Origin: a virus
DNA: 64,000 nucleotides
Reading direction: 5' to 3' (one strand)
Virus record (IMG/VR): IMGVR_UViG_3300033183_000491
Coordinates: 1 to 64,000 of that record
Position 1 is the first letter of the stretch. Every line of letters starts with the position of its first letter. Shown one piece after another: positions 1,671 through 48,340 of the stretch. The position numbers and the translations under genes are program-made. The notes under the pieces were generated by a model that was given only the letters and a program-made list of their open reading frames with translations, made no database searches and was not told the origin of the DNA.

Positions 1671-2015
1671 TTAATAATCAATTCCTGGAATGTGACCTTT
1701 TGCACGATATGCTGGAGGCCTTCTTTCAGCTCTCATGCGAGCTCTTTCTTCTCTTTCTTGATCTAATCTTTTTGCGTCTTCTTTTGAATAACTTCCTGCA
1801 ACATTACCTGGTTTAATGTTGTTTCTTGTTTCCCAATCGAATAAATCGTTTTCAAATTCTACTTGTCCCATTTCTGTCGGGGAATATTGATCTCTAACAG
1901 GTTTAGGATCATCAGAAAAATCTAGTTGAGATTCGTCAAACTCATCATGAAATTGAGTTGACTCTTTAATAACACTTCTAATGATTTGTCTAAGACGTCT
2001 TTCAGTAATTTTCAT
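1671..2015 (-). CDS. hypothetical protein, N-terminal leader family (MKITERRLR type)
   Basis: Starts MKITERRLRQIIRSVIKES, near-identical to the N-termini of 45811-46209 and 45385-45750. The first 11 nt are identical across all three ORFs at the DNA level. Confidence 0.7.
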   Translation of the reverse strand: MKITERRLRQIIRSVIKESTQFHDEFDESQLDFSDDPKPVRDQYSPTEMGQVEFENDLFDWETRNNIKPGNVAGSYSKEDAKRLDQEREERARMRAERRPPAYRAKGHIPGIDY

Positions 2016-9459: not shown

Positions 9460-10002
9460 TTATCCAAGTACACCACATTTAATTAGTGATTGTAAAACAT
9501 CTAAAAGAGCTTTCGTAGAAGACTCTCTACAAGATGAACCAGTAAAATCCATTAAAGGTTTTAAGCACAAGTCAATATCATGTGGATTAGACATTAAGTG
9601 CTGAGAACAATTATCATATGATGATGTACACGGAACTGTCTGATGAGATTGACTTCTTAAACCACGATAGTGGTCTAAAGCTTCTGGGTGTTTTGCGTGG
9701 TATTCAATATGATCAACATATTCTTGAGGGGTTACTACACCGTCGTCATTTAAGTCAAAATGATGATGTAGCTCTTCAGGAGAAATATTACCTTGATGAT
9801 CAAATTCAATGTCGTGATGAGCTTCACCACTTTCTAAAGAATGAAAATCATAACTTGATTCCTCTACGTTTTCAGGGCATTGACATATTTCGCATCCACA
9901 ACAATCGCATAAAGCTTCACATCTGCATGGGCTATATCCACACCCAGAACATGTGTTTGATGCTAAATCAAGAAATTCTCTTATTAATTTTCTTTCGCTC
10001 AT
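9460..10002 (-). CDS. Cys/His-rich metal-binding protein with a canonical EF-hand loop and leader-type N-terminus
   Basis: N-terminus MSERKLIREFLDLAS. 11 Cys in CSGCGYSPCRCEALCDCCGCEICQC. Many His residues. 12-residue EF-hand loop DLNDDGVVTPQE. Confidence 0.6.
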   Translation of the reverse strand: MSERKLIREFLDLASNTCSGCGYSPCRCEALCDCCGCEICQCPENVEESSYDFHSLESGEAHHDIEFDHQGNISPEELHHHFDLNDDGVVTPQEYVDHIEYHAKHPEALDHYRGLRSQSHQTVPCTSSYDNCSQHLMSNPHDIDLCLKPLMDFTGSSCRESSTKALLDVLQSLIKCGVLG

Positions 10003-14691: not shown

Positions 14692-15753
14692 CTATCTCTG
14701 TGGATCCTTATAAACTTTAGCGTCGTAGGTGTCATGTGTATATGTTAGGTCTAAAATTTTCAAACTTTCAGGTGATAATGAATTATTTTCTAAGTCAGAT
14801 TTGTCAATCCCGATATTAGCTAAGCTGAAATCGTGATAAAAATTTTCTCCTGTCATTAATAATAGATTTCTAATATCTGGAAAATTTCTTGTTCTTTCTA
14901 ATATAAAGTCATAATCTTCTTTTAAATCACTATATACAGTGGTTTTTCTATCATTTTTGATTTTGTTTCCATTTTTATCAAGTTCATATTCACCGTTTTC
15001 GTCAAGTTTATATTCAGGTTTAGTATAATCAATATAATAAACATCGTCATCTGCCATGTTTTCAATAGCTTCAATAAGATATTCTGATGTAATAGAGTCA
15101 GAAGGAATAAATGACTCTCCAAAAGTTTGTTTAAAATGGCTTGCTAAAGATTTTAGAAATAAATCTAATGTTGATACAAATTGATGAGGATTTAAATCTT
15201 CTCTGAATATTGCTGAAATTGTTGGCAATACTTTTTTAATTTGATCTTTAGTAAGATATAAAATTTCAGTAGCTACTTCTTCACCTTCACCATAAACAGT
15301 CCCAACCTTTTCAGCAAAAATCCAAACTGGATTTTCTTCCAAGTCATAATCATATAACTTTGTAAATACTTTTCTAGACCCAGACCCATAATCACTTTTT
15401 GAAACGTTTATTTCTTTTGAATTTGATCTAACACCTCTTATTCCATTTGCAATCTTTAAGATTACGTCTTCAACACCACGTATAAAGAATACAACTCTTT
15501 GAGCGCCTTCTCCTTTTATTTCAAGACCAAGTTCGTTTGATCTTTTTTCTACTGTCACTAAGAACTCGTGATATCTGTCTTGTCGAAAATTTTCTTGTGA
15601 CCAATTACTATAATCTTCAGAAAAAATTTCATTCTTAATTTTAATTAAATCGTTTTTTAATAAATCTAGTTTTTTACCTTCTTCAAAAGTTAAAGATTCA
15701 TTTAAAAAATCTTTCCAGACATTAAAGAAAAAGTTTTTATCTTTATAACTCAT
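14692..15753 (-). CDS. protein-kinase-like fold protein (paralog of the 21702-22976 C-terminal half), leader-type N-terminus
   Basis: GEGAQRVVFF (Gly loop), VILKIA (VAIK-like Lys), NPVWIFAEKV (hinge), HDFSLAN (D-x4-N catalytic loop) and KILDL (DFG-position Asp). N-terminus NFFFNVWKDFLNES. TAG stop. Confidence 0.5.
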   Translation of the reverse strand: MSYKDKNFFFNVWKDFLNESLTFEEGKKLDLLKNDLIKIKNEIFSEDYSNWSQENFRQDRYHEFLVTVEKRSNELGLEIKGEGAQRVVFFIRGVEDVILKIANGIRGVRSNSKEINVSKSDYGSGSRKVFTKLYDYDLEENPVWIFAEKVGTVYGEGEEVATEILYLTKDQIKKVLPTISAIFREDLNPHQFVSTLDLFLKSLASHFKQTFGESFIPSDSITSEYLIEAIENMADDDVYYIDYTKPEYKLDENGEYELDKNGNKIKNDRKTTVYSDLKEDYDFILERTRNFPDIRNLLLMTGENFYHDFSLANIGIDKSDLENNSLSPESLKILDLTYTHDTYDAKVYKDPQR

Positions 15754-15809
15754 TGTATCCTCTTTTAAAATAATTTCTATAATTATATTTATATTTCAAA
15801 GGTATTATA

Positions 15810-16097
15810 ATGCTACCATTTAAAGAAAAAATTATTGAAGAAACAGAAACTTACGTTTTAGTTCAAAGAGATTTTAATTCTTTATCAAAAGAAGAAGATT
15901 TAAATTGGCATTTAGATGAAGAAGACAGGGAAATTTTTGTTATTAAAGGTGATGGTTGGTATCTTCAAATGGAAGATGAGTTACCTAAACCTATGCAGAA
16001 ACAATCTTTATTTAAAATACCTAGAGAAATATGGCATAGGATAATTAATAAAAACGGGACAAATTTAATAATAAACGTGAGGAAATATAAATGTTAA
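15810..16097 (+). CDS. hypothetical protein (first gene of a plus-strand island)
   Basis: 95-aa ORF. Its stop overlaps the next start. A weak cupin-like impression only. Confidence 0.5.
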   Translation: MLPFKEKIIEETETYVLVQRDFNSLSKEEDLNWHLDEEDREIFVIKGDGWYLQMEDELPKPMQKQSLFKIPREIWHRIINKNGTNLIINVRKYKC

Positions 16098-16309
16098 GCT
16101 TGCTTGAAAGTTTTATATATGAAATAATCATCGAAGAAGGAAACAAACCTCCTAAGTGGTTAAAAAAATCAAAAAAAGCTATTTATAAAGGAAAAATAGT
16201 AAAAGTAATTGAAGCTGATGGTCCTGGCCCAATGTCTATTATTAAATTAAAAAATGGAAAAGGCAAGGTCAAACAAGTTTTATCTAAAGATTTAAAGCCG
16301 GTTAAATAA
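16091..16309 (+). CDS. leader-family small basic protein
   Basis: MLSLLESFIYEIIIEEG leader followed by a Lys-rich KOW-like body (KGKIVKVIE..KLKNGKGKVKQV). Confidence 0.65.
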   Translation: MLSLLESFIYEIIIEEGNKPPKWLKKSKKAIYKGKIVKVIEADGPGPMSIIKLKNGKGKVKQVLSKDLKPVK

Positions 16310-16310
16310 A

Positions 16311-16688
16311 ATGAATATTTTGTTAGAATCATATATAAAGGAAATATTATTAAATGAAACAAAGAAAGACCCTAAAGTAGGTACAGGGAAAAAACCTAAA
16401 GGGAGTGGAAGACGTTTATATACAGATGAAAACCCAAAAGATACAGTAAGAGTTAAATTTAGAACTGCTGAAGATATAAGAAAAACTTTATCTAAAAAAT
16501 CATTTAAATCTAAGTCACATGCTAGACAATCTCAAATTATTAATTTAATACATCAAAGAGTTAGAGCAGCTTATAAAAATGCAAAAGACCCTAAAGTCAA
16601 AGCTAGACTTAAAAGAGCATATGACTATGCATGTAAAAGAAAAGAATCTTCTAAGAAAAAAACAAAAAGATTAAATAAGAAAAAGTGA
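16311..16688 (+). CDS. leader-family polybasic protein
   Basis: MNILLESYIKEILLNET leader. The remainder is very rich in Lys/Arg (KKPKGSGRR..KKKTKRLNKKK). Confidence 0.65.
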   Translation: MNILLESYIKEILLNETKKDPKVGTGKKPKGSGRRLYTDENPKDTVRVKFRTAEDIRKTLSKKSFKSKSHARQSQIINLIHQRVRAAYKNAKDPKVKARLKRAYDYACKRKESSKKKTKRLNKKK

Positions 16689-16697
16689 GTAAGTAAA

Positions 16698-16946
16698 ATG
16701 GAATTTATTTTATTAGAAGAATTTATAAGAGAATTTATATTTAAAGAGTCTAATAAATCAAAAAAGAAAAGACCCGGCAAAAAAGAATATTATAAAGGGA
16801 CAAAAGAAAGCAATAAGTCTATGGCATATGAAATAGACAAATGCAGTCCTACTGGTAAACCTAAGGGTTGGAAGGCACCTAAGTCATGTTACTCTTACTG
16901 GGATGCTGATAAAAAATACGATAAGTCAAAAAAGAAAAAGAAATGA
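16698..16946 (+). CDS. leader-family polybasic protein
   Basis: MEFILLEEFIREFIFKES leader, then KSKKKRPGKK...KSKKKKK. Confidence 0.65.
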   Translation: MEFILLEEFIREFIFKESNKSKKKRPGKKEYYKGTKESNKSMAYEIDKCSPTGKPKGWKAPKSCYSYWDADKKYDKSKKKKK

Positions 16947-17281
16947 ACGATTTAATATTATTAGAAAATTTAATAAAAGAGTTAGTTTTAATTGAAGCTA
17001 AAAAAAGAAAAAAGAAAAAATCAACAACTCTTTCAGATAAAACGAGAAAAACTCTAAAGAAAAAGGCTGAAGATGCTAACATGCCTTTAGGTGCTTTGAC
17101 TGCTGTTTATAGAAAAGGATTAGCTGCTTGGCTTACTGGACATAGACAAGGAGTCTCTCAACATCAATGGGCTATGGGAAGAGTTAATTCTTTTATTAGG
17201 GGTGGAAAAACAAGATCAGTTGATAAAGCTGAATATAAAAAAGTTCAAGACTTTAGAAAAAAGAAGAGAAAGAAAAAATGA
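16943..17281 (+). CDS. leader-family basic protein with a conserved-looking C-terminal domain
   Basis: MNDLILLENLIKELVLIEAKKRKKKKS leader and basic tract, then GALTAVYRKGLAAWLTGHRQGVSQHQWAMGRVNSF. Confidence 0.65.
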   Translation: MNDLILLENLIKELVLIEAKKRKKKKSTTLSDKTRKTLKKKAEDANMPLGALTAVYRKGLAAWLTGHRQGVSQHQWAMGRVNSFIRGGKTRSVDKAEYKKVQDFRKKKRKKK

Positions 17282-17910
17282 GAAACAAACTATTATTAGA
17301 AAACAAAAATCTAATTTCAGAAGGTTTAAGGTTTCATTTAATCGAGGGAATTAGTATTGAGAACAATATTTACAGACCTGGTTCTATAAAGTATTTTAAT
17401 CTTTTTAAAGAAGTTAGAGAATTATCAAAACAAGGTTTATATAATTTAAACGAAGTTGAAGATTATTTTATAAATGAGACTGAAATTGGAGAATGGGGCT
17501 TGTATAAAGGAGACTTAGTTCCTTTAGATTACCCTATATTCGAGAAAGATGAATCTTTGTCATTTGATACTTCTCGAGTTATTGAAGAAAAGAAAAAAAC
17601 AAAAACAAAACTCACAAAGAAGAATTCTTATAAAGGGAAAAAAGTAAAACTTAATAAACCAATGAGATCAAGTGGTCCAGGAAAATATAAAGTTTATGTT
17701 AAAAATCCAGATACTGGAAATATCATACAAGTTAATTTTGGATCAAGAGAAATGTCTGTAGGTATTAGTGATCCTGATAGGAGAAAATCTTTTGCTGCTC
17801 GTCATAAATGTCATCTAACTAAAGATAAAACAAAACCTAGATATTGGGCTTGTAGAACTGCAAGATATCCTTATTTAACAGGTAGTAAAAAGAAATATAC
17901 TTGGTGGTGA
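17278..17910 (+). CDS. leader-family protein with basic C-terminal domain
   Basis: MRNKLLLENKNLISEGL leader. C-terminus GKYKVYVKNPDTGNIIQVNFGS..DPDRRKSFAARHKC..RYWAC. Confidence 0.65.
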   Translation: MRNKLLLENKNLISEGLRFHLIEGISIENNIYRPGSIKYFNLFKEVRELSKQGLYNLNEVEDYFINETEIGEWGLYKGDLVPLDYPIFEKDESLSFDTSRVIEEKKKTKTKLTKKNSYKGKKVKLNKPMRSSGPGKYKVYVKNPDTGNIIQVNFGSREMSVGISDPDRRKSFAARHKCHLTKDKTKPRYWACRTARYPYLTGSKKKYTWW

Positions 17911-17919
17911 TTTTAATAT

Positions 17920-18435
17920 TTACTTGGTAACTTTTCTTTCAAATTCACCTTTTAGAAAGTTATTTAATTCTTTATTAATATCAAATTCATTTGGCATAAT
18001 ATCATCTTTTTTAGATTTAAATTTTTCTTTTAGGTAATCTATAAATTTATCTTCTATTTTATCGTCAAGAATCATTGAAGTCTTATCATCTAAGTCAAAC
18101 TGCCCTAGAAATCCTTTAAGACTATCATCGTCATCTCTCTGTGTAAGAACTTTAAGAGCTTCACCAGCATCCATTGTAGTACTCAATACTTCAGACCAAC
18201 CTCCTGTTGCTAGCATTAAAGCAGCTTTCATTGCTGTCTTGCCATATTTTTTAACGTTTTCTTTAGTTTTCAAATTTCCTTTTTCTTTTGTGATAATGTT
18301 TAAAGCATTAATAAAATCTCCGTAAGTCATTTGATTAGATATATCTTCTTCACCGGATACTTCTGTCGACAATTCTTCTTCTTGATTTTGTTCTAAAAGT
18401 AAAAAATTTCTAACATAATCTTTTATAACATTCAT
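17920..18435 (-). CDS. leader-family acidic protein
   Basis: MNVIKDYVRNFLLLEQ leader. Convergent with the plus-strand island. Confidence 0.6.
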   Translation of the reverse strand: MNVIKDYVRNFLLLEQNQEEELSTEVSGEEDISNQMTYGDFINALNIITKEKGNLKTKENVKKYGKTAMKAALMLATGGWSEVLSTTMDAGEALKVLTQRDDDDSLKGFLGQFDLDDKTSMILDDKIEDKFIDYLKEKFKSKKDDIMPNEFDINKELNNFLKGEFERKVTK

Positions 18436-22980: not shown

Positions 22981-23292
22981 TTAAATTACCTTTCTTATAC
23001 TTTCTCTAATATCAGATTCAGATATTTCATTGTCCATACATAATTTAGATATTTTTGAACTTAAATAATTTGTAACTGTTTCTAAATCTGCACTACTCTT
23101 TGCTAATTTATAATGACACCATTGTGGTAAATCATCTTCGTCATTTAAGACTGTGTATAGATTATACAGATCTCTTGCCATTGTTAGCAAAGTTAATTTT
23201 GCCATATGGCCTTCTCTTGAGTCTGATTTTATTTTTCCATAATCTAAATTTCTGCCATTCATAATGATTTTTCCTTTTATGTTAATTTTCAC
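22981..23292 (-). CDS. hypothetical protein
   Basis: 103-aa ORF that overlaps the upstream stop by 11 nt. Confidence 0.55.
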   Translation of the reverse strand: MKINIKGKIIMNGRNLDYGKIKSDSREGHMAKLTLLTMARDLYNLYTVLNDEDDLPQWCHYKLAKSSADLETVTNYLSSKISKLCMDNEISESDIRESIRKVI

Positions 23293-25027
23293 ATGGTAAT
23301 ATTAAACATGATGATCTAGGAAGATTCGATTCCATAGCTTCTTCACAAGAGTTTGCTAAAGATAATTCAGGAGCCCAACTCCAAGTATTCATCATTATAT
23401 ATCCTGAATGTGTTGGAAATCCATTTAATGTATAAGTAATGATTTCTGATAGTTTTACATATCTGCTTGTTTGTCTAAAAAATATTCCAAATCTTCCTCT
23501 TGGAATATATCCACTATAACTAAACGTTGTCGAACTACTGCTTGAATCAACAATTGTTTGTGAAATACTTTCACTATTTCCTTCCGTAACAACCTTACCA
23601 CTACTACTACTCTCAGACATATTCCAAACCCTACCAGAGGATAAGGAAAATGACTCTGTTAATGAGTTTGATGTAGAACTTGATAAAACATATGCCCCAG
23701 ATAAAGAGTGACTTCTAGAATCATTCTGTGAACTTCCATAAGATCTACCACTTTGTGAAGATCCTCCTGTAGAATATCCTCTACTATTTGTATTAGATTG
23801 ACTTTCTCCTGAAGTGTTTGTTTCTCCCCAATTTCTTGAAACACCTGCTGATACATCAACTTTTCCACTAGCTTTAGCTAAAAATGGTAATGATCCTTCT
23901 CCACTTACACCTACTGTTGTCGAAGCATTAACTCCTGTATTTGTATTATTGCTTTGAGATTGACTTTGCGTTTCTGAATTTGATTCACCTAATGACCAAG
24001 CCCAGTTTTCTCCGTCTGTAGTATTAAATGATATATTATTAGACTCTGACTCTGAATTTGTCGTAGTATAAGAATCTGATTGAGTTTCTGAATTAGACAT
24101 GGACGAAGACAAAACTGTAGATTCTGTTTGTCCTATAGATATTCCTTCTGATGTCGATATACTATTACTATTAGAAAAACTATCAGACCAACTTTTATTT
24201 ATATTAATAGATACGCTATTTTGTCTTGTTTCTGATTCTGATTCTGAATATTGAACATTACTTCCAACAGATCCTGGAATACATCCTGTAACTGGGACAG
24301 GTTCAAATATTTCAGCTAATTCATACTTTCCAAAATGTTTTATTTCTAAAGGTCTTACAACTTTAAATGGTAATTTAGTAATAGCAGAGTTACCATCATT
24401 ATCAGACGCAGTTATTTCTAATAAAGCAATATAATATGAAATGTCATCTGGGACTTTTTCTAAGACTATATTTTCTAAAATATCATTATCGACAGCTGAA
24501 TTGAATTTATGATTAAATTCATAACTGTTATAAGGAGTTGTAATTAAATAATTTATTTCTATTGCTGGTATTTTTAAAATATTAATTGATATATTATTAG
24601 GTAATAGATTTATAACATTACCGCTAAGTGTATCACAATTTTCTGTATGACAAAATTTATTTATAATAATCGAAGAATCTATATTAATATTAAATTCTTG
24701 ATTTATTTTTTCTTCGTAATTGTCAATGTCACAAGATAATTTATAATTTTCATATGAAGGAATATCTAAATTTAGAAATCTATTTATTATAAATTTGTCA
24801 TTTTCTCTTGATAAATAATAATCTTCAATACTGGAATTATTTCTAGAGTTTTTTAAAGAACATTTTATTTCATTAATATTAATGTCTTTATTTATTATAT
24901 TAAATTCTACTCTTTCTCCAGAAGTGAGTGAATTATTCTTTAACTCTAGTATTTGATTACTACTGTAATAAGCTTCTGAACAAGAAAGAGACAATAAAGA
25001 TATTAAGACTAATAAAATATTTTTCAT
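23282..25027 (-). CDS. predicted lipoprotein with a long Ser/Thr/Asn-rich region
   Basis: Lipobox LLSLSC-SE. About 250 aa of S/T/N-rich alternating sequence (SVSININKSWSDSFSNSNSISTSEG...). C-terminus RGRFGIFFRQTSRYV..CLILPCEN. Possibly a beta-rich surface or pore-forming protein. Confidence 0.55.
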   Translation of the reverse strand: MKNILLVLISLLSLSCSEAYYSSNQILELKNNSLTSGERVEFNIINKDININEIKCSLKNSRNNSSIEDYYLSRENDKFIINRFLNLDIPSYENYKLSCDIDNYEEKINQEFNINIDSSIIINKFCHTENCDTLSGNVINLLPNNISINILKIPAIEINYLITTPYNSYEFNHKFNSAVDNDILENIVLEKVPDDISYYIALLEITASDNDGNSAITKLPFKVVRPLEIKHFGKYELAEIFEPVPVTGCIPGSVGSNVQYSESESETRQNSVSININKSWSDSFSNSNSISTSEGISIGQTESTVLSSSMSNSETQSDSYTTTNSESESNNISFNTTDGENWAWSLGESNSETQSQSQSNNTNTGVNASTTVGVSGEGSLPFLAKASGKVDVSAGVSRNWGETNTSGESQSNTNSRGYSTGGSSQSGRSYGSSQNDSRSHSLSGAYVLSSSTSNSLTESFSLSSGRVWNMSESSSSGKVVTEGNSESISQTIVDSSSSSTTFSYSGYIPRGRFGIFFRQTSRYVKLSEIITYTLNGFPTHSGYIMMNTWSWAPELSLANSCEEAMESNLPRSSCLILPCEN

Positions 25028-25721: not shown

Positions 25722-25972
25722 TGTTTTCTCTTTAATAATTCTATTACAGACTCCTGAAATTGTGGAGACTTTGCAATATTAAATATTTCTTCTTCAGAAT
25801 GTTTGAGATCATATTTTTTTGAAATGTTTGAAGCGATCTTTACAAATGATCTATTAATAATATTTCTAACAGTTGAATGGTTCATTTTATCTCCATCATC
25901 TGTCATTACTTTAGCAATGTCATGAAGACCAAGACCAACATTTTTAACAGTAACATATTTTTTATTTTTCAA
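25718..25972 (-). CDS. sigma-70 region 4.2-like HTH protein (detached C-terminal piece of the upstream sigma factor)
   Basis: [34 protein letters not shown] parallels RpoD [27 protein letters not shown]. The ORF begins at a TTG inside GAAAAATAAAAAAT, in the +1 frame relative to the sigma ORF stop. Confidence 0.55.
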
Positions 25973-26711
25973 GATATTCTCTCATTTCATCAGTAACTGG
26001 GAATTTATTAAAATTGTCATCATTATTATTAATACCAAATCGAAGTCTAATAATTTTTTCTTCTTTTGGTGTTAAAAGACTTAAACTCTCTTCGACGATC
26101 TTGTTTAATTCTTTATTTTCTAGAGTTTGTGCAGGATTAGAAAATTCTGATTCATCTTCAACTTTATCAAGTAAACTTAAACTCTCATCATCTTTTTTAT
26201 TATAAATAGACATAATTTGTTTATTAGACTTAAGAGTATATTTAACCTTTTTTACAGGTTCATCAATTAATTTAGAAATTTCTTCTAGTGTAGGATTTCT
26301 TCCATTTTCATCTTCAAATCCTGCAATTTCTTTTTTAATTTTTGCATTTAACAGTCTTGAGTGTGTTGGGACTTTAATATTAGAAGAATTTTCATTAATA
26401 TATTGTAAAGCTGCCTGTTTAATCCACCAACATGCATAAGTACTAAATTTAAACCCTAATTCAGGATCAAACTTATTAACAGCTTTCAATAATCCAATTG
26501 TACTTTCTTGAAGTAAGTCTTCAAAGTCAAGATCTTGCCTGTGATATTTTTTAGCAATAGAAATAACAAGACGAAGATTAGATTCTACTAGCTTTTTCTT
26601 TGCAGATTCATCTCCTTTTTTAATTCTTCTTGATAATTCAATTTCTTGTTTTTTGGTTAGTAAAGGATTTGCCTTGATAATTTTTGAATATTCTGCGCTA
26701 ACAATAGCCAT
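25962..26711 (-). CDS. sigma-70 family RNA polymerase sigma factor (regions 1.2-4.1 only)
   Basis: Region 2: [37 protein letters not shown]. Region 4.1: [15 protein letters not shown]. The ORF then stops before any region 4.2 HTH. Confidence 0.85.
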
Positions 26712-26751
26712 TCAATTTCCTTTTTGTAAAGTATAATTTTTATAAATTATA

Positions 26752-26952
26752 TTATATGTCAATTATAATTACACGCCGGGGTTCTTTTGGTGTATTATCT
26801 ATCTTATCGTTAAGATTATAATCATAAGGATTAGGTAATTCAATCCTTAACATACGATCATTTTCTTCTCTAGTTTGTTGATCTATTTTATCTTGAATTG
26901 TTTTCTTAATTAATAGATCAGTTAAAACATCTTTATCTAACTTAGAAGACAT
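26752..26952 (-). CDS. hypothetical protein
   Basis: 66-aa ORF between groEL and the sigma gene. Confidence 0.5.
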   Translation of the reverse strand: MSSKLDKDVLTDLLIKKTIQDKIDQQTREENDRMLRIELPNPYDYNLNDKIDNTPKEPRRVIIIDI

Positions 26953-26979
26953 AACTTCCTCCTGATAATTGTACCTATA

Positions 26980-28611
26980 TTAATACATATCATCAGATAG
27001 TTGAACTAGCTGGACTCCTGCATGTGAATCATTTGTATTTAATACGATACATCCTACTGACAGGAGACTATTACATACACTTACTGCATTTGAAATTGCT
27101 GTTGCTGTTACTTTTTGTGGATCAATAATTCCTTTATCAATCATATCAACATAACTTTCAGTCCTAACGTCATAACCATAATTCCAGTCAGGATTATTCT
27201 TGATCATTTCAATAATATAATCAACAGGTTTATCACCATTATGCAAGATCTTTCTTAAAGGTGAAATACAAGCATCAGAAACGATTTTTGAAACTGTGCT
27301 ATCTAATAATGATTCTTCTTCATTATCTTCTAACAATTTAATCCCTGCACGCGCTAAAGCAATTCCACCTCCTGGTAAGAATCCACTTTCAATAGCAGCT
27401 TTTGTTGCATGAAGTGCATCATCAATTCTATCAACTAATTCAAGGAGTTCTGATTCTGTATGTGCTCCAATTGATAGAACAGCTACAACTCCCTTGTTAA
27501 TAATAAGACGTTGCTTATAGAATACTTCTTCTTCTTTTGTAATAGTTTTATCTTCTAACTTCTTTTCAATATCTTTAGAAATCTCGTCAGAATTTTCACA
27601 TGAAGCACATTCAACAAACAATGTCGTATCATGATTAGTTTCAATTTTCTTACAAGAACCTAGATCTGAAAGAACTGTGTTTGATATCTCTTTTTCATCT
27701 AAGTCATAGAAAACTTTTGTTCCTAATGCTTTTGATAGATCAGTTAAGATTTGATTTCTTTTTTCACCATAAAAAGGTGACCTAACTGCACAAACTTGCA
27801 ACATTCCTTTTGAAACATTTGCCAACAACGACTGGATTGTTTCTTGTTCATAATCATTTGCAATCAAGAACAAAGGTTTTCCAGTTTGATGGACTTTTTC
27901 AAGAATAGGAAGAATCTGTGTAAGAGAATTTAACTTACAAGACATAATCATCACAAGAGGATCATCCAAAATGGTTTTAGATTTCTCATTATCATTAATA
28001 AAATAAGGAGAAACATATCCTCGATCAATCTTAACACCTCTTACAAGTTTAAGTTCTGTACTAGTTGTTTTTGATTTTTCAACAGTTACCAGACCAGAAG
28101 TTCCAACTTCAAGCATCGCATTAGCAATTAAATCACCAATATATTCATCACCATTAGCTGAAATGGTTGCTACTTGTTTGATTTCTTCATTAGAAGAAAC
28201 CTTTTTTGATTTTTCACTTAGAATATCAATAACATCAGAGACCTTTTTATTAAGGTAACTTGTAATTTCAGATGGTGATCCGATTCCTGTCTGTAAAGCT
28301 TGTGATGCTCTAAAATATAGTTCTTTAGCAAGGACTGTTGATGTTGTACTACCATCTCCAGCAACTGTTGCTGTATTTTCACTCGCTTGTTTAAGTAATT
28401 TTGCTCCTAGATCTTCAACTCGGTTATTTAAAACAATACTTTTCGCTACAGTTGCTCCGTCTTTTGTTAAGTGAGGAGGCTCGTTGTTTTTCTCAATAAG
28501 AACTAGCTTTCCTCTAGGACCCATTGTAATTGATACAGCATCACAAAGTTTTTTGACTCCACTTTTAAGAAGTGATTGTGCTTCAGCATCAAAATAAATT
28601 AAATCAGACAT
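26980..28611 (-). CDS. groEL: chaperonin GroEL (Cpn60)
   Basis: ITMGPRGKLVLIEK, HLTKDGATVAKSI, AGDGSTTSTVLA and LPGGGIALARA. 543 aa. Confidence 0.9.
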   Translation of the reverse strand: MSDLIYFDAEAQSLLKSGVKKLCDAVSITMGPRGKLVLIEKNNEPPHLTKDGATVAKSIVLNNRVEDLGAKLLKQASENTATVAGDGSTTSTVLAKELYFRASQALQTGIGSPSEITSYLNKKVSDVIDILSEKSKKVSSNEEIKQVATISANGDEYIGDLIANAMLEVGTSGLVTVEKSKTTSTELKLVRGVKIDRGYVSPYFINDNEKSKTILDDPLVMIMSCKLNSLTQILPILEKVHQTGKPLFLIANDYEQETIQSLLANVSKGMLQVCAVRSPFYGEKRNQILTDLSKALGTKVFYDLDEKEISNTVLSDLGSCKKIETNHDTTLFVECASCENSDEISKDIEKKLEDKTITKEEEVFYKQRLIINKGVVAVLSIGAHTESELLELVDRIDDALHATKAAIESGFLPGGGIALARAGIKLLEDNEEESLLDSTVSKIVSDACISPLRKILHNGDKPVDYIIEMIKNNPDWNYGYDVRTESYVDMIDKGIIDPQKVTATAISNAVSVCNSLLSVGCIVLNTNDSHAGVQLVQLSDDMY

Positions 28612-38814: not shown

Positions 38815-39192
38815 TTAATCCTGATTTTTGTTTAATATTTTTGTTACTGATGTCCAAACAGCTTTAGCTACTTCGTCTGTTAAATTTTCATTATCACAAT
38901 CGTCAATTATAGAATACAAAGCAGATTGTAATTCTACACTTTTTGGAATGTATTGATTGTCTCTTGTATTAATGTTTCTTACATTTAAATTTATATCAAC
39001 AAAGTTATCACCAGTAATAGGCGGGATGAACTCTTTTTCATGTTCAACCCCATTACCATCGGAGTTTGACTTTTTAATATTTGGTATATCTCTGCTACTA
39101 GTATAGTCATCTGGCATAAACATTTCTTTTAAATGATTTTCAAACAAAATGTCTTTGACAAAACTTCTAAAGTCTTCTTTATTAATACTCAT
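38815..39192 (-). CDS. leader-family protein
   Basis: MSINKEDFRSFVKDILFEN leader. Confidence 0.6.
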   Translation of the reverse strand: MSINKEDFRSFVKDILFENHLKEMFMPDDYTSSRDIPNIKKSNSDGNGVEHEKEFIPPITGDNFVDINLNVRNINTRDNQYIPKSVELQSALYSIIDDCDNENLTDEVAKAVWTSVTKILNKNQD

Positions 39193-40586: not shown

Positions 40587-41303
40587 TTAAAGTATTTTTG
40601 AAACACTATCAGCTTTTTTAATTCTGTCTTCAATAACAGACCAGTTCAACTCTTTCATCATTCCAAAAACATAGGTTTTTCTATCTTTTAGATAATCTCT
40701 ATAATAACTATGTTCCCAACAATCCATAACTATTACTGGAATCATACCAACCATTACATTTTGACTATGAAGATCTATAATTGTGTTTACAAATCTTTTT
40801 AGATAAATGTCATAGTAAGTAATTGCCCAACCATTTCTAGCAGAAAGACAACATGCTACAAAATCTTCTTGCCAAGAATCAAATGTACCAAAATCTCTAG
40901 ATAATCTCATATAAGAAAGAGAATCCATAGTAATACTACTATTTAAATCACTTATATTTTCAAAATATAGGCCGTGTAGAAAAGCTGCGTTGTGATTATA
41001 AGACTCATCTATTTTAAGACTTCTAAAATTAGAATTATTAAGATTAGCTGATGTTTTATCTACGCCGTCTAATGAAGAAGATATTTTATTTAATTTTTCA
41101 ATATAACCTTCAAGTAATTCTTGATGAGCTTTTTTTGTTTTAGAAGATAACAATTCAGTCTGTAAACTAAAACTTCCAGGTTCTACAACGTAAGATTCAT
41201 TTAAACTTTCTTTTTTTGATTCACTATCACTATGGTTTATAGAGCTTTGATCATTCATAGTATTATCAATAGCTTCTTTTATTATTTGATCTAAACTTTT
41301 CAT
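40587..41303 (-). CDS. Fe/Mn superoxide dismutase with an N-terminal leader-type extension
   Basis: DCWEHSYYRDYLKDRKTYV (the DxWEHxYY signature), NHNAAFLHGLYFENI and GWAITYYD. About 45 extra N-terminal residues begin MKSLDQIIKEAIDNT. Confidence 0.85.
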   Translation of the reverse strand: MKSLDQIIKEAIDNTMNDQSSINHSDSESKKESLNESYVVEPGSFSLQTELLSSKTKKAHQELLEGYIEKLNKISSSLDGVDKTSANLNNSNFRSLKIDESYNHNAAFLHGLYFENISDLNSSITMDSLSYMRLSRDFGTFDSWQEDFVACCLSARNGWAITYYDIYLKRFVNTIIDLHSQNVMVGMIPVIVMDCWEHSYYRDYLKDRKTYVFGMMKELNWSVIEDRIKKADSVSKIL

Positions 41304-42248: not shown

Positions 42249-42704
42249 ATGAATAATCTACTTAAAGAATATGTTTATAATATTATATTAGAAAATAAAA
42301 AAAATACAAGAAATTTATATGTCTTTGATTTTGACATGACTTTATATGATCCAAATAATAAATTATGGATTGATAAATCGATAAGCGAACTTAACAAAGT
42401 CAAAAATAACAATTTGATTGTTTTATGTACAGCAAGATTAAACTCTAGCGAAATCATAAAAGAAACAAAAAAACTTCTTAAAGAAAAAAATATAAAGTTT
42501 GATTATTACTATTTTAAACCTAGATCTATTACAATGTCTACACATGAATATAAAAAAGGAGTAATTGAAAAGTTAATAAATGAAAACAATATCGAAGAAA
42601 TTTATTTCTGGGAAGATAATTTAAAAAATCTAAGTGCAGTTAAAGATATAAAAGAAATTAAATCAGGAAAAATAAAATACTATCCTAAATTAGTTAAAAT
42701 ATAA
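42249..42704 (+). CDS. HAD-superfamily phosphatase with leader-type N-terminus
   Basis: MNNLLKEYVYNIILENKK leader, directly followed by the HAD motif I DxDxT (VFDFDMTLYD). Confidence 0.6.
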   Translation: MNNLLKEYVYNIILENKKNTRNLYVFDFDMTLYDPNNKLWIDKSISELNKVKNNNLIVLCTARLNSSEIIKETKKLLKEKNIKFDYYYFKPRSITMSTHEYKKGVIEKLINENNIEEIYFWEDNLKNLSAVKDIKEIKSGKIKYYPKLVKI

Positions 42705-45136: not shown

Positions 45137-45385
45137 ATGAAAAATTTAATAGAGACTTATATAAATTTTTTTCTAGAAAATAACAATTCAGATGATAGAC
45201 CTTTTGTAGACTTCATGAAAGATATTGAAAAAGAAGAAAAAGACAAAAAAAATAATGATCGTGTTGAAAATACTAAACCTAACATCAAAAAAGAAGATAA
45301 TATTAATATCTTAAGAAATCCTAATGATAATCTTTTATTTTACAGAAAAATTAAAAATAAGAAAAATAAGCCTGGAGAAAACTAA
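45137..45385 (+). CDS. leader-family small protein
   Basis: MKNLIETYINFFLENNN leader, then a Lys/Asn-rich body. Confidence 0.6.
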   Translation: MKNLIETYINFFLENNNSDDRPFVDFMKDIEKEEKDKKNNDRVENTKPNIKKEDNINILRNPNDNLLFYRKIKNKKNKPGEN

Positions 45386-45750
45386 TGAAAATTACAGAAA
45401 CAAAATTAAGAAATTTAATAAGGAAAGTTATCTTAGAAAATAACATGACTTATTTAGAATTTGGTCAAAATCTAATTGAAGGTGAACCTATTGATAGAAT
45501 AAATCCCGGTTATGGTTTATATCTTGTAACTGGTGAAGACTTTTATGAAGAAACTGTTGGTGGAAGAGTTATCGAAAAATTTGATGTTTATGTTTGCGAA
45601 GGACCATATAAACAGATTGATGAACTTGAAGTAAGAAAGTATGACGATAGTTCATTATTAAAATTGAGGAATAATTTAGTTTTTGTAAAACAATCAGATA
45701 AAGAATATCGCATCCCAGTTTCAGAAGCTAAAACACCTGAATTTGATTAA
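45385..45750 (+). CDS. leader-family protein (MKITE type)
   Basis: MKITETKLRNLIRKVILEN leader. Confidence 0.65.
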   Translation: MKITETKLRNLIRKVILENNMTYLEFGQNLIEGEPIDRINPGYGLYLVTGEDFYEETVGGRVIEKFDVYVCEGPYKQIDELEVRKYDDSSLLKLRNNLVFVKQSDKEYRIPVSEAKTPEFD

Positions 45751-45790
45751 AAACATATTTAAAAACATATTTAAAAACATATTTAAAAAT
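45749..45790 (+). repeat. 12-nt tandem repeat AAAAACATATTT x3 plus a partial copy
   Basis: Three perfect units at 45749-45784, followed by aaaaat. Sits between the stop of 45385-45750 and the SD of 45811-46209. Confidence 0.85.
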
Positions 45791-45810
45791 AATCTTAAAG
45801 GAAAATTAAA

Positions 45811-46209
45811 ATGAAAATTACAGAAAGACGTTTACGCTCAATTATTAAGAACATTATTAAAGAACAAAGCGATATAAATCCTCGTGGCGCCCGTGCAGCA
45901 GGACCAGATCTTCAACAAAAGTATTCTGTAGATCTTATTAACACTCTTAGACAATGTAACACACTCTCAGATATTCATGCCCTAATGAAAAAAGACGGAT
46001 TTAGCGAAGAAGATTTCGAAGATGAAAGAAGTAATTCATACCAATATTTTTGGTTTTTATATATATCAGTATGTCAAACTTTAGAGGATTTACAACGCGA
46101 AGGTTATAAAGTAGGATTTGTTATGAAACTTGATCAATGGCCTTGGTATACAGCAGATGCAAAGGAACCTTCTTCAGGAGAAGATTATTGTGCAATCTTG
46201 TTAAAATAA
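45811..46209 (+). CDS. leader-family protein (MKITE type)
   Basis: MKITERRLRSIIKNIIKEQ leader, paralogous to 1671-2015. Confidence 0.65.
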   Translation: MKITERRLRSIIKNIIKEQSDINPRGARAAGPDLQQKYSVDLINTLRQCNTLSDIHALMKKDGFSEEDFEDERSNSYQYFWFLYISVCQTLEDLQREGYKVGFVMKLDQWPWYTADAKEPSSGEDYCAILLK

Positions 46210-46240
46210 TTAATCAAACTTGTTAAAATAATTAATCAAA
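46197..46240. repeat. perfect 22-bp tandem duplication at a convergent gene junction
   Basis: cttgttaaaataattaatcaaa x2. Copy 1 holds the last codons and stop of 45811-46209. Copy 2 holds the stop and last codons of dnaE-C. Confidence 0.85.
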
Positions 46241-47308
46241 AGCATTAATCTTTTTAAGCTTAGCAAGATTTGAAGACATACCCCACCCTACATCATTCTT
46301 CACGTCAGCAAGCCAAGTACTAAACTCAATATCATCATCAAGATTACCCCATACTCTTAACCAACCACTACGATTATCTGAATCGACACATTTCCAACGC
46401 ATAAATGCTTTACCATTTTTTGTTGTTTTTCTAATAACTTCAGTCACGGTAAACCATCCGATTCCACGATCACCTGGATTAATATCAAAAACACTACTAA
46501 TTTGCTTCTGTTTTAACTTTTTAAGAAGACTAGGTGGAAACAATAAGTCATCATTTGCGTCGTTACTGAGTTCAAAATAATTTTTAATTTTTTCTGATCT
46601 TTTCCAGTCAGACACAATTTTATATTTTGATAATAAATCTTCGACGATAGGTGTTAATTCCTCACCTTTTTTAAGGGCGCGTTTAATAGCTGTCTTAGTC
46701 ATTCCAAATCTTCCCTTTTTAAGTAATACATAGTTATCGAGAATTAAATCATGGAGTTGCTTATGATTATCAAGTTTATCGTCTTTAAATTCACTGAGAG
46801 ATTTAAATGCTTCCATCTTTGTTAGGGATGAAAAAGCTGTTTTATTCATCTTTGAATGCTTCCATTCTCCTTCTTCATTATAAAATAGATCTTCTAAATT
46901 ATTGTATGGTCTATTTGCAAATATTTCTTCAACAGCTTTATCACCTACTCCTTTAAGAGACGTTAAAGGTGGAACAAAAGCTTTCAAATCTTCAGAATAT
47001 TCCCATTCTGAACCAGAGTGATTTACATCAATTGCTGAAATGTCATATCCTAATGCTTTTATTTCAGCAATAACTTTTGACATACCTTTAGGGCTGCCAT
47101 TTTCAGATTGTAAAACTGTTGCTAACCATTCTGTTTCGTAGTGTGTGTGTAACCATGCAGCGTAATAAGAATCAATTGCATATGAAACAGCGTGAGAGTT
47201 AGATTGCAAAATACCATTACTTAAGTAATATTGATGATCATGATGTGAAACTTCTAGATCATACGTTTGTTGCTTACCAGTAAATTCAATTGATAAAATA
47301 CGAGGCAT
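46232..47308 (-). CDS. dnaE: DNA polymerase III alpha, C-terminal fragment preceded by a split-intein C-piece
   Basis: Int-C: MPRILSIEFTGKQQTYDLEVSHHDHQYYLSNGILQSN, followed by the +1 Ser. Extein: SHAVSYAIDSYYAAWLHTHY, completing the GFNK|SHA..Y motif. Confidence 0.85.
   Translation of the reverse strand: MPRILSIEFTGKQQTYDLEVSHHDHQYYLSNGILQSNSHAVSYAIDSYYAAWLHTHYETEWLATVLQSENGSPKGMSKVIAEIKALGYDISAIDVNHSGSEWEYSEDLKAFVPPLTSLKGVGDKAVEEIFANRPYNNLEDLFYNEEGEWKHSKMNKTAFSSLTKMEAFKSLSEFKDDKLDNHKQLHDLILDNYVLLKKGRFGMTKTAIKRALKKGEELTPIVEDLLSKYKIVSDWKRSEKIKNYFELSNDANDDLLFPPSLLKKLKQKQISSVFDINPGDRGIGWFTVTEVIRKTTKNGKAFMRWKCVDSDNRSGWLRVWGNLDDDIEFSTWLADVKNDVGWGMSSNLAKLKKINAFD
47198..47308 (-). other. split intein C-fragment (37 aa)
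   Basis: Block F/G pattern TYDLEV..HHDHQYYLSNGILQSN|S. Compare Npu DnaE Int-C, VYDIGVERDHNFALKNGFIASN|C. Confidence 0.8.
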
Positions 47309-47330
47309 TATAAACCTTTCTTTTTAATTT

Positions 47331-47359
47331 ATTGTACATAATTAATTTTTTGTTTACAC
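47331..47359 (-). promoter_or_regulatory. GTGTAAAT-class promoter candidate driving the Int-C/dnaE-C fragment
   Basis: Minus strand: TATGTGTAAACAAAAAATTAATTATGTACAATAAATT. The -35 overlaps the endonuclease stop codon. Confidence 0.55.
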
Positions 47360-48340
47360 ATAAGACTTTCCAAATAACCATAATCCTCTTGTTTTATTAA
47401 GAATAATACTTTCTATTTTGTCTAATGTTTCTTTATTAAACGTACCATTTTCTTTATATTCATATTCATCATGAGAAATCCTAATTACAGTCCAACCTTC
47501 TTCTATTAAGACTTCATTTAATTCTTTGTCTTTTTTTGTAACTTCACTAAGATTTCCTTTTTTCTTAAACACGTCTTTAAAATGATGTATACCGTCAAAT
47601 TCAATAACTATTTTATTTTCTAATGACATAATATCAATCTGTCTAGTGTTTGTCTTAGTTGATAAAAACTTTCCTGTTCTTTTAAGTGTTTGATTTCTTT
47701 TAAAAGTATTAGGAAAGTTTTTATCAACAATGTTAAATAAATCACCTTCAGGTTTAGACTGCCAAGATTTATGCATAACTGAGGTGCATTTTTTATAAAA
47801 TTCTCCCGGGTTATTCTTTCGCCATTCTGCAAGTCTATTTGATCTTTCTTTTTGGATATCTTTCCTACTTGAAGTTTTTTTAGCAGTCCTCGAAGATCTT
47901 TCTCTAAATTCTTGCGTTTTGTTTAAATTAGAAAGATTTTTTCTTCTTGATTCTCTAGCAAACTCTGAATTCATAATTCCTTTAGAAATAGATTTTCCTA
48001 ATTTTTCAATGTATTCTGAAAGATCCTCGCCTTTTTCTTTTTTTCTAGATATCCATGCTCCGTTTTTCTTTCCTGACATTGAATATTTATTTTTAGATTT
48101 TTCACACATCGCTAAGCCATATTTTAATTCATATTCTTCTTTACTTAAATTATGATTTTTAATATGTAATTTTATATTTTTTCTTACAAATCCACAAATT
48201 TGACATTTTACATAATCAATATTTTCTTTGTAATTTTCTAATATAAATTTACATTTTTCTTGATGGCTTTTTAATGTCGATTCTTTTATATAAGATTTTC
48301 CACACACACAATCGAAAGATCTTCTTGAATTATCAACCAT
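47354..48340 (-). CDS. free-standing homing-endonuclease-like protein (C2H2 Zn fingers + Vsr/DUF559-like nuclease)
   Basis: N-terminus CVCGKSYIKESTLKSHQEKC and CQICGF..HIKNH. C-terminus VIEFDGIHHF..KDKELNEVLIEEGWTVIRISHDEY. Overlaps the Int-N 3' end by 55 nt. Confidence 0.7.
   Translation of the reverse strand: MVDNSRRSFDCVCGKSYIKESTLKSHQEKCKFILENYKENIDYVKCQICGFVRKNIKLHIKNHNLSKEEYELKYGLAMCEKSKNKYSMSGKKNGAWISRKKEKGEDLSEYIEKLGKSISKGIMNSEFARESRRKNLSNLNKTQEFRERSSRTAKKTSSRKDIQKERSNRLAEWRKNNPGEFYKKCTSVMHKSWQSKPEGDLFNIVDKNFPNTFKRNQTLKRTGKFLSTKTNTRQIDIMSLENKIVIEFDGIHHFKDVFKKKGNLSEVTKKDKELNEVLIEEGWTVIRISHDEYEYKENGTFNKETLDKIESIILNKTRGLWLFGKSYV

Follow-up and report, generated by a model that had tools for sequence, protein, structure and literature searches.

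Leaders on unrelated open reading frames

The 64,000-nucleotide stretch of viral DNA analysed here (IMG/VR record IMGVR_UViG_3300033183_000491, positions 1 to 64,000, termed the window) has a G+C content of 22-33% and carries the majority of its genes on the minus strand. A number of its open reading frames start with a short peptide, termed here the leader, that ends in a hydrophobic residue, any residue and a glutamate (hydrophobic-x-Glu). An earlier note on this DNA had pointed out about 20 such open reading frames and proposed that the leader is a capsid-targeting signal or a propeptide. The 19 N-termini quoted in it are all present at the open reading frames named. Its designations are kept; for minus-strand open reading frames these give the low end, and the leader sits at the high end.

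Three classes of leader can be distinguished, and every class ends in hydrophobic-x-Glu. Class A has the consensus LLExYIxEhLLxE (16091, 16311, 16698, 16943, 17920, 42249 and 45137), class B the consensus MKITxxxLRxIIxxxIxE (1671, 45385 and 45811) and class C the consensus LhExWKxFLxE, or hhxEW(K/R)xFLxE (52622 and 14692). All robust members end in [ILVF]-x-E. The leaders and the genes that carry them are:

16091-16138, plus strand: class A leader MLSLLESFIYEIIIEE, gene 16091-16309, 72-aa basic protein
16311-16358, plus strand: class A leader MNILLESYIKEILLNE, gene 16311-16688, 125-aa basic protein, predicted cut after E16
16698-16748, plus strand: class A leader MEFILLEEFIREFIFKE, gene 16698-16946, 82-aa basic protein
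16943-16996, plus strand: class A leader MNDLILLENLIKELVLIE, gene 16943-17281, 112-aa DUF5824 protein
17278-17322, plus strand: degenerate leader MRNKLLLENKNLISE, weak when taken alone, gene 17278-17910, 210-aa protein
18391-18435, minus strand: class A leader MNVIKDYVRNFLLLE, gene 17920-18435, 171-aa acidic protein
42249-42293, plus strand: class A leader MNNLLKEYVYNIILE, gene 42249-42704, 151-aa HAD-like enzyme
45137-45178, plus strand: class A-like leader MKNLIETYINFFLE, gene 45137-45385, 82-aa protein
45385-45438, plus strand: class B leader MKITETKLRNLIRKVILE, gene 45385-45750, 121-aa protein
45811-45864, plus strand: class B leader MKITERRLRSIIKNIIKE, gene 45811-46209, 132-aa protein
1962-2015, minus strand: class B leader MKITERRLRQIIRSVIKE, gene 1671-2015, 114-aa protein
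52622-52672, plus strand: class C leader MNTKNLLREWKTFLLNE, gene 52622-54991, 789-aa protein
15697-15753, minus strand: class C-like leader MSYKDKNFFFNVWKDFLNE, gene 14692-15753, 353-aa protein
39139-39192, minus strand: possible leader MSINKEDFRSFVKDILFE, gene 38815-39192, 125-aa protein
9967-10002, minus strand: possible leader MSERKLIREFLD, gene 9460-10002, Cys-rich 180-aa protein

The bodies downstream of the leaders are unrelated, as the earlier note had stated; the best body-to-body BLASTP match has an E-value of 0.001.

In an unbiased test, the first 22 residues of 86 window open reading frames were compared all against all. This gave 14 pairs with a score of 30 or more, as against 0-5 pairs in controls made of internal segments or shuffled sequences, and the high-scoring pairs form a single cluster. 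All class A and class B members given above make up the cluster core, and 38815, 9460 and 39803 are weaker members. Leaders of 1671 and 45811, whose bodies are unrelated, have a pairwise score of 51, and that of 45385 scores 40-41 with these two. The possible leader of 38815 scores 25-27 against classes A and B.

A position-specific scoring matrix was built exclusively from the leaders that 16311 orthologues carry in other metagenomes, and was run over the ~23,000 positions of the window. Its five best matches are the N-termini of 16311, 16698 (rank 2), 16091, 17920 and 16943, and these begin at residues 4-7. An iterated leader hidden Markov model (HMM) was applied to about 1 Mb of related contigs, where 42 of 1646 N-termini and 3 of 8443 internal 28-mers reach 8 bits or more, a difference of ~60-fold. 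The matches begin at residues 3-8; the position is strictly N-terminal. Scores of individual leaders in the window are 14.9 bits (16698), 14.2 (16091), 14.1 (42249), 11.2 (17920) and 7.6 (9460). A class B HMM, trained on N-termini of relatives only (head-core proteins included), ranks the three class B leaders of the window first, with 1671 at the top. The class C HMM has the 14692 leader as its top window match, which is weak (4.3 bits); it misses 52622, which also scores weakly within the window, because of a one-residue insertion.

A loose motif, i.e. two hydrophobic residues, any residue and Glu within residues 4-24, is present in 29 of 88 window open reading frames compared with 12.6% of internal 21-mers (binomial p = 6e-7), which leaves about 18 open reading frames in excess; about 11 of the 29 are expected by chance, and the list holds obvious false positives, e.g. 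the IMPDH-like 12573. The motif is commoner than in shuffled or internal controls, a comparison on which the earlier note had staked its idea.

The excess of about 18 comes close to the ~20 members first claimed, but single weak members cannot be assigned by it. Ten window open reading frames are robust members and a further three to five are backed by orthologues; the original list was too generous by 4-6 entries. Open reading frames 40587 (superoxide dismutase-like, SOD-like), 34069, 35270 and 39803 are indistinguishable from chance as members; membership of 38815 is possible. A shared leader signal does exist, on fewer open reading frames and with more variation than first described.

The term "amphipathic" used in the earlier note fits class B, with hydrophobic moments at the 96-100th percentile, and class A only in part (41st-91st percentile; 45137 is at the 89th). 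An N-terminal hydrophobic or amphipathic segment could also bind membranes or direct export, so that the proteins reach the host envelope or leave the cell, and the window does encode secreted proteins or lipoproteins (680-1504 and 23282-25027). By inspection, the leaders carry 3-5 acidic residues, display no uninterrupted hydrophobic core as long as that of a signal peptide and no signal-peptidase or lipobox site, and are unlike both real signal peptides of the window. Polylysine proteins are unlikely export substrates as well. An export function therefore appears to be the most improbable of the explanations considered.

The two window proteins 680-1504 and 23282-25027 have lipoprotein-type signal peptides (e.g. 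LSCSS). Small acidic proteins with lipoprotein- or signal-peptide-like starts are found in related loci between the head and neck modules (L186, L194, L202 and L204).

The resemblance of the leaders might be thought a by-product of composition or translation initiation in a 28% G+C genome, with N-termini rich in K, N, I, L and E, combined with a recent tandem duplication of 16091-16943. The genome is AT-rich, the weak members are at chance level, and the genes of four of the best members lie side by side. But shuffled N-termini and internal segments fail to reproduce the signal, and small marine phages with leaderless bodies, which are AT-rich too, show an N-terminal enrichment of the motif of only 1.18-fold. 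Spacing and terminal Glu are kept across thousands of orthologues. The tandem genes were also considered as diverged paralogues, and this was rejected because their bodies are unrelated and the families of 16311, 16943 and the 17278 C-terminal domain exist elsewhere without a leader. In addition, the leaders differ at synonymous sites: the codons differ in 15 of 46 pairs of identical residues, and at the nucleotide level identity is only 0.42-0.69. Selection on the leader thus acts at the protein level and not at the DNA level. An artefact of composition or duplication is largely excluded and is given very little probability.

Leaders and bodies in related phages

A close cultured relative of the window phage was not found. 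A 211,364-bp IMG/VR contig is syntenic with the window at 94-100% protein identity, and a protein with 100% identity to 45811 is recorded on a contig of 239,550 bp; the window thus belongs to a jumbo phage of at least 211-240 kb, of a T4-related lineage. Marker genes of the lineage recur across dozens of IMG/VR contigs, and loci on related contigs are cited below by L numbers.

The leaders are far better conserved in orthologues than the bodies behind them. Homologues of 45811 have an overall identity of 65%, with only 2-3 of the 18 leader residues different. Marine metagenomes contain more than 8000 homologues of the 16311 protein. Positions E11 and E16 are nearly invariant in its orthologues, and all but one of the 120 homologues listed show ...hhxE followed by polylysine and DPKVGTGKKP. 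In the lineage, 177 strict leaders are found on 48 unrelated body families. The class C start h-h-x-E-W-(K/R)-x-F-L-x-E is present on 74 open reading frames across the loci examined, many of them unrelated, e.g. L327 MKNNTKLIMETWRRFLNE↓D and L086 ...FNQWRQFLLDE↓N (the arrow follows the terminal Glu).

Individual genes show the same relationship. The 16091 orthologue in L003 retains its leader, MNNLLRELIYEMIMLE↓GNKPP. Orthologues of 17920 start with MSKSILESYVRE... (L003) and MKKNILENYIRLE... (L008), and that of 14692 in L008 starts with MIYNKSVFINLWKEYINE↓D. The leader of 42249 lies upstream of the DxDxT motif (VFDFDMTL) and is retained in a homologue with 80% identity. In 16943, the DUF5824 match (E-value = 1.5e-13) covers residues 20-93 only; orthologues in L004, L006, L007 and L008 retain the leader, and L061 has the same body without it. 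Orthologues of 17278 have clear leaders of differing classes in front of one SEGLRFH body: class A in L007 (MEKILKKYIVEIVKEE↓K), L002, L004 and L006, MIKLxxLLLE in L014 and L032, and CxCGC...LLxES in L016 and L018. Orthologues of 9460 (L006 and L007) retain a start of the ERxIxRNFLNxIxE type. Membership of 17278 and 9460 appears to be supported by these orthologues.

Three settings are seen for the 16311 body (DPKVGTGKKPKGSGRRLYTDENP...): behind a leader and polylysine, leaderless, and within fusions. The leaderless form starts with MAKKKDPKVG... in small phages, including gp40 of Pelagibacter phage HTVC033P (L082), and this leaderless copy is the only match to 16311 in cultured phages by tblastn. 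In the third setting the body is part of fusion proteins of 190-1279 aa, together with nucleotidyltransferase, HAD and kinase-like domains. Of 15 fusion proteins from T4-like lineages, 13 have [ILVMF]-x-E a short way ahead of DPK and the other two have T-x-E. A hydrophobic-x-Glu junction in front of the DPKVGTGKKP domain is kept whatever lies upstream, and it is missing only where the domain starts the protein, as in small phages. Where the 16091 and 16311 bodies are naturally fused (P0113, L008), only one leader is present, at the N-terminus of the fusion. The junction before the DPKVGTGKKP domain appears to behave like a processing site.

Loci L016, L018, L020, L022, L024, L028, L031, L033 and L043 contain single open reading frames of 390-1279 aa with a 16311-type basic domain. 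Their partner domains are nucleotidyltransferase (GGFKPPHxGH), HAD-like, protein-kinase-like and small Cys-rich domains, and some hold internal leader-like segments, e.g. L022 WKEIINETLLVE↓GG. These open reading frames may be polyproteins that are processed in the capsid. The 16311-type body, DUF5824 and the 17278 C-terminal domain also co-occur leaderless in small marine phages (L061, L067, L076 and L077, with all three in L061). At the DNA level, the 17278 C-terminal domain has matches in Flavobacterium phage immuto and in Nitrosopumilaceae spindle-shaped viruses.

An AlphaFold2 model of 16311 shows the leader as a separate helix at residues 3-16, with a pLDDT below 50 at residues 15-21, a linker at the predicted cut. 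The body is helical (mean pLDDT of the model 77), and a comparison of the model with the PDB gave no significant fold match (best E-value = 0.59). In other members the residues directly after the leader Glu are NKKNTR (42249), HKVFSLQEIIQTLIQSQR (52622), QSDINPR (45811) and QNQEEELSTEVSGEEDISNQMTYGDFINALNIITK (17920).

The hydrophobic-x-Glu ending, the flexible linker after the helix and the polyprotein junctions would equally suit a propeptide that keeps the cargo inactive or soluble and has no part in prohead targeting. Highly basic cargos could harm the cell if free. The protease could then be a ClpP-family enzyme, whose gene lies beside leader genes outside the window, and not the phage protease of the T4 gp21 family (Peptidase_S77). 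A cleavage site, however, needs 3-4 residues, whereas 12-18 residues upstream are conserved here, and in three classes. We know of no Glu specificity in ClpP-type prohead proteases. Glu specificity is the reported hallmark of the gp21 family (PMC5694885), which argues against ClpP as the protease. An inactivating propeptide is accordingly rated as improbable.

Prohead protease, head module and comparison with T4

Searches with Pfam and PHROGs of the ten largest unannotated open reading frames of the window (35649, 30516, 33132, 34069, 39803, 21702, 23282, 51360, 19909 and 52622) yielded no capsid protein, portal or protease. The only significant match of the scan was a VWA domain in another open reading frame, 55217. 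A prohead protease, which the earlier note had suggested looking for elsewhere in the genome, is found outside the window in head modules of the lineage. Loci fetched via a marker protein of the window lineage carry Peptidase_S77 (PF03420) in L327 (1841-2443, E-value = 1.9e-28) and L343 (191-793, E-value = 5e-29), and candidates for the conserved His, Ser and Asp are present. In L224, Peptidase_S77 (7e-24) occurs together with a gp23 capsid protein, and one 141-kb contig carries both the Peptidase_S77 of L285 and the leader polyprotein of L020.

The link between window and head module was followed along contigs. To the right of the window, the 211-kb contig carries an amidase, two leader genes, the ClpP-family gene, a ribonucleotide reductase (RNR), a gp41-like helicase, UvsX and a gp32-like single-stranded DNA-binding protein (SSB), followed by large tail proteins and the end of the contig. 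Contigs with 73-90% identity extend this order by the tail tube gene, a pair of sheath paralogues and neck genes. Upstream of the tail and neck genes, on contigs with a common 125-aa marker protein (78-98% identity), is the head module in the order portal, S77 protease, core proteins, scaffold (L327 5078-6583) and gp23 (L346, E-value = 1.8e-76), with leader genes directly after it. The presence of Peptidase_S77 in these marker-linked head modules indicates, via the chain of contigs, that the lineage encodes a predicted gp21-type prohead protease.

The ClpP-family gene (L086:7074-7679) is ~2.5 kb past the right end of the window and far from the head module. It matches PF00574 (E-value = 2.5e-23) and a PHROG annotated "head maturation protease" (1e-19); its neighbours are a thioredoxin-like gene and the two leader-bearing genes.

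Leader genes and head genes are also found close together. In L011, Peptidase_S77 (E-value = 1e-29) lies beside a leader-gene cluster, a terminase and a gp20 portal (E-value = 9e-70). Loci L009, L011 and L013 share the leader-tagged 16311 protein with the window at ~70% identity, and their leader-gene cluster is located between a tail sheath gene and the terminase, portal and S77 genes. In L032 at least five genes within 11 kb start with MI(K/N)(L/F)xxhLhE, a few kb from the terminase and portal. The head-core A protein, encoded after the protease in 57 related head modules, starts with MAK[ILV][ST]xxxLKx[IL]VKECLVEILxE↓G; its first 24 residues are near-invariant and the remainder is variable. 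A tblastn search with this protein yielded nothing relevant in cultured phages. The capsid protein of these modules starts with MSxxF(T/S)LxQLTE↓G.

These genes place the lineage near T4. Portal_T4, Gp23 and Peptidase_S77 are all matched in it outside the window, sheath and tube proteins were identified by N-terminal sequence and by likeness to the Pfam-confirmed sheath of L011, and UvsX (phrog_97, 3e-71) and an SSB are present. A helicase of the gp41/DnaB type was assigned by eye only; Terminase_6N is present in the relative L011. The lineage, as distinct from the window itself, qualifies as a Straboviridae-like (T4-related) myovirus. Its replicative polymerase is DnaE-type, unlike that of T4. 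A eukaryotic giant virus, suggested by DUF5824 and the AT-rich genome, was rejected because of the sigma-70-like factor, DnaE, GroEL, lipoprotein signal peptides and T4-type head and tail genes.

The internal head proteins of T4 all join the scaffolding core via a capsid-targeting sequence (CTS); in Alt, the cuts are at ITE-6 and LTE-619 (PMC5694885). Internal proteins of T-even phages are highly diverse, and only the targeting sequence is common to them (PMC3012670). The CTS of IPI, IPII, IPIII and Alt is likewise a short N-terminal peptide on unrelated proteins that ends in (L/I)-x-Glu, and gp21 removes it by a cut behind this Glu; the protease family that acts in T4 is encoded in this lineage too. 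In both phages the cargo is a diverse, fast-evolving set of which some members are basic. The leaders described here have 14-19 residues and fall into at least three classes, compared with the 10 residues of the T4 CTS. At least 10-15 leaders are present in 64 kb, far more than in T4, which has a handful of targeting sequences in its whole genome. The predicted cargo includes enzyme-like proteins and, in relatives, polyproteins of 190-1279 aa, unlike that of T4.

T4 IPII and IPIII start with MKTYQEFIAE↓A, gp24 with MAKINELLRE↓S, and gp23 with MTIKTKAELLNKWKPLLE↓GEG (...AELLNKWKPLLE↓G); further in, gp23 also contains FLTE↓AEIGG (read from NC_000866). The gp24 start resembles the MI(K/S)LxDLLxE leaders of relatives, e.g. 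L016 MIKLTDLLKE↓S, and the gp23 start resembles class C leaders (LLREWKTFLLNE↓H; MKNNTKLIMETWRRFLNE↓D). The positions given for gp24 and for the first gp23 site are those at which we take these proteins to be cut. The likeness appears to be one of pattern and not significant homology. In T4, gp23 and gp24 belong to the structural shell, whereas the proteins that start in this way here are non-structural and unrelated to one another. The lineage's own capsid protein begins differently and with fewer residues (MSFTLKTLTE↓G).

Giant phages of the phiKZ type (phiKZ, 201phi2-1 and SPN3US) also have many packaged proteins, and a distant relative of gp21 processes these at a three-residue motif, cutting behind its Glu. 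Both protease types cut after Glu, and the SPN3US paralogues gp53 and gp54 share an identical N-terminal propeptide, MANFVKSKLARESVE (PMC5694885). Their motif is (S/A/G)-x-E or A-x-E as compared with hydrophobic-x-E here, their protease is S80 as compared with S77, and their propeptides are often long. The window phage is not phiKZ-like; it has a T4-type portal, capsid protein, UvsX and gp32, plus a sigma-70-like factor.

The closest cultured relatives are Flavobacterium phage vB_FspM_immuto and related phages of 155-190 kb, smaller than the window lineage. In a 20-kb stretch examined, the immuto head module has the same order, with the S77 protease gp070, and its gp23-type capsid protein is 47% identical to that of L224. 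Leader-like starts near the protease are gp069 MENNFDIHKWQAKFLKE↓S and gp072 MKKSQIVKAVQEVLEE↓M. The immuto group is known to swap its replicative DNA polymerase (PMC11348598), and the DnaE-type polymerase of the window fits with this.

Taken together, N-terminal specificity, modularity, the S77 protease of the lineage, the leaders of head-core proteins and the likeness to T4 make capsid targeting the best explanation. We hold, with moderate confidence, that the leaders probably serve this T4-related marine jumbo phage as N-terminal propeptides for targeting to the prohead. The reading put forward in the earlier note has survived every computational test applied, on support that is circumstantial. 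In the proposed process, the 14-19-residue helix would dock a protein on the scaffolding core during prohead assembly, and the gp21-type serine protease (Peptidase_S77) would cut after the terminal Glu of hydrophobic-x-Glu. The leader peptide would then leave the head, and the mature cargo would remain with the DNA and presumably be delivered into the next host cell. The predicted cargo includes the small, very basic proteins 16091, 16311, 16698 and 16943, the HAD-like enzyme 42249, the 789-aa protein 52622, and others. Such a system would be an extension of the established T4 mechanism, with more members, more classes and different sequences, and would involve no new principle.

Several results weigh against prohead targeting. 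The majority of the leader genes in the window are far away from the head module and have genes for replication and nucleotide metabolism around them. For the T4 late promoter, the motif TATAAATA was found 29 times, with 17 +/- 5 expected; this does not count as an enrichment, and the motif has no clear link to leader genes. The leaders give no significant alignment with MKTYQEFIAE, only the general pattern of aromatic or hydrophobic residues, acidic residues and a terminal Glu. The head-core A leader HMM has the 45811 N-terminus as its top window match, at only 5.2 bits (E-value = 0.09). The residue after the Glu is G, A, S or N in 39%, compared with 32% at internal sites, only a mild bias. 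The S77 gene is connected with the window through several syntenic contigs in a chain (78-100% protein identity) and not by one contig; for the capsid gene, a putative single-contig link depends on the equal length of two records (133,024 bp). The ClpP-family gene adjoining two leader genes beyond the window is a second protease candidate. A report on leaders or on the virion proteome of the immuto group was not found in the literature.

The location of the leader genes among replication and metabolism genes, and not structural ones, is in agreement with a different function, that of an uncleaved docking or oligomerisation helix unrelated to the capsid. Its partner could be, for example, GroEL, a ClpP-family protease, or a replication or assembly factory. 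The strong amphipathicity of class B, the GroEL encoded in the window itself and the ClpP-family gene next to two leader genes are consistent with this. A docking helix leaves several observations unexplained, i.e. the invariant terminal Glu, the hydrophobic-x-Glu junction retained in polyproteins, the like leader as the most conserved part of head-core proteins beside S77, the likeness to the cleaved N-termini of T4 gp24, gp23 and internal proteins, and the loss of the leader in small phages. It is considered rather unlikely.

If prohead targeting is correct, the leaders would make it possible to list, from sequence only, which proteins this widespread, uncultured lineage of marine jumbo phages packages and probably injects. 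The delivered set of enzyme-like and histone-like proteins would far exceed the handful in T4, which bears on host takeover or phage self-protection by giant phages. The defined peptides and predicted cut sites are material for metaproteomic searches. The leaders and S77 form a candidate protease-substrate pair, and the leaders could serve as tags for loading foreign proteins into T4-type capsids. The polyprotein junctions suggest that polyproteins may be processed inside the capsid. To our knowledge this has not been described for tailed phages.

The leader classes might further represent an addressing code in which each class sets the place, copy number or ejection order of its proteins in the head. 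This is a speculative proposal and is thought unlikely. If true, the addressed cargo would consist of DNA-condensing polylysine proteins and HAD-like enzymes, with the SOD-like protein added if that weak member is real; relatives would add nucleotidyltransferase- and kinase-domain proteins, and some would load multi-enzyme polyproteins to be cut apart inside the capsid.

Cargo proteins and other features of the window

Four cargos (16091, 16311, 16698 and 16943) are strongly basic, with a net charge of +0.25 to +0.28 per residue; the 16091 body has a net charge of +14. T4 IPII and IPIII are net basic too. Among the functional labels given to cargos in the earlier note, HAD phosphatase for 42249 is plausible, as the protein has the DxDxT motif and its homologue P0128 carries PF10307. 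The dismutase label for 40587 holds for the C-terminal domain only (Sod_Fe_C, E-value = 9.5e-19). "Kinase-like" has no family match behind it, and "EF-hand" corresponds only to a match below the Pfam threshold.

The SOD-like open reading frame (40587-41303) shows, by eye, an extension of ~45 residues, and its N-terminal domain seems to have lost most of the usual histidines. Because of this apparent loss, the protein may not be an active dismutase. The 789-aa protein 52622-54991 has, besides its N-terminal class C leader, a class A-like sequence at its C-terminus (54944-54988), ...NESLLKKYISLLIF. Since T4 Alt is processed at both ends, a C-terminal signal on this protein is conceivable.

Leader genes are concentrated in plus-strand islands within a minus-strand region: 8 of 15 plus-strand open reading frames carry a leader, compared with 2 of 73 on the minus strand (Fisher p = 4e-6). 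They appear to form separate transcription units. The AT-rich sequences TTATATTTAC and TATTTATATTT are found 25-35 nt before the start codon, at 15754-15809 and upstream of 45137 and 52622. Such AT-rich stretches before the plus-strand leader islands may be a shared promoter. A threefold tandem repeat, AAAACATATTT, occupies positions 45751-45810, directly 5′ of the class B gene 45811.

Among the other genes of the window are those for a flap nuclease, purA-, purB- and guaC-like proteins, UvdE, thymidine kinase, ThyX, a DNA ligase and a MoxR/VWA pair. The region 25962-28611 (minus strand) encodes a GroEL-type chaperonin of 543 aa (Cpn60_TCP1, E-value = 4e-58) and a sigma-70-like factor with regions 1.2, 2 and 3, in which region 4 was not detected.

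The DnaE-type polymerase gene, split by an endonuclease-like open reading frame, is located at 46232-51081 on the minus strand as three open reading frames. The N-terminal part is encoded by 48286-51081 (931 aa). The splitting open reading frame, 47354-48340 (328 aa), has matches to DUF559 and to the ROS/MucR zinc finger. The C-terminal part, 46232-47308 (358 aa), matches HHH_6, and its N-terminus resembles the end of an intein or homing endonuclease.

Outside the window, the lineage displays two adjacent tail-sheath paralogues of ~1000 and 1400-1670 aa, which are unusually large, followed by a 162-aa tube protein (L170, L176, L194, L204 and L224).

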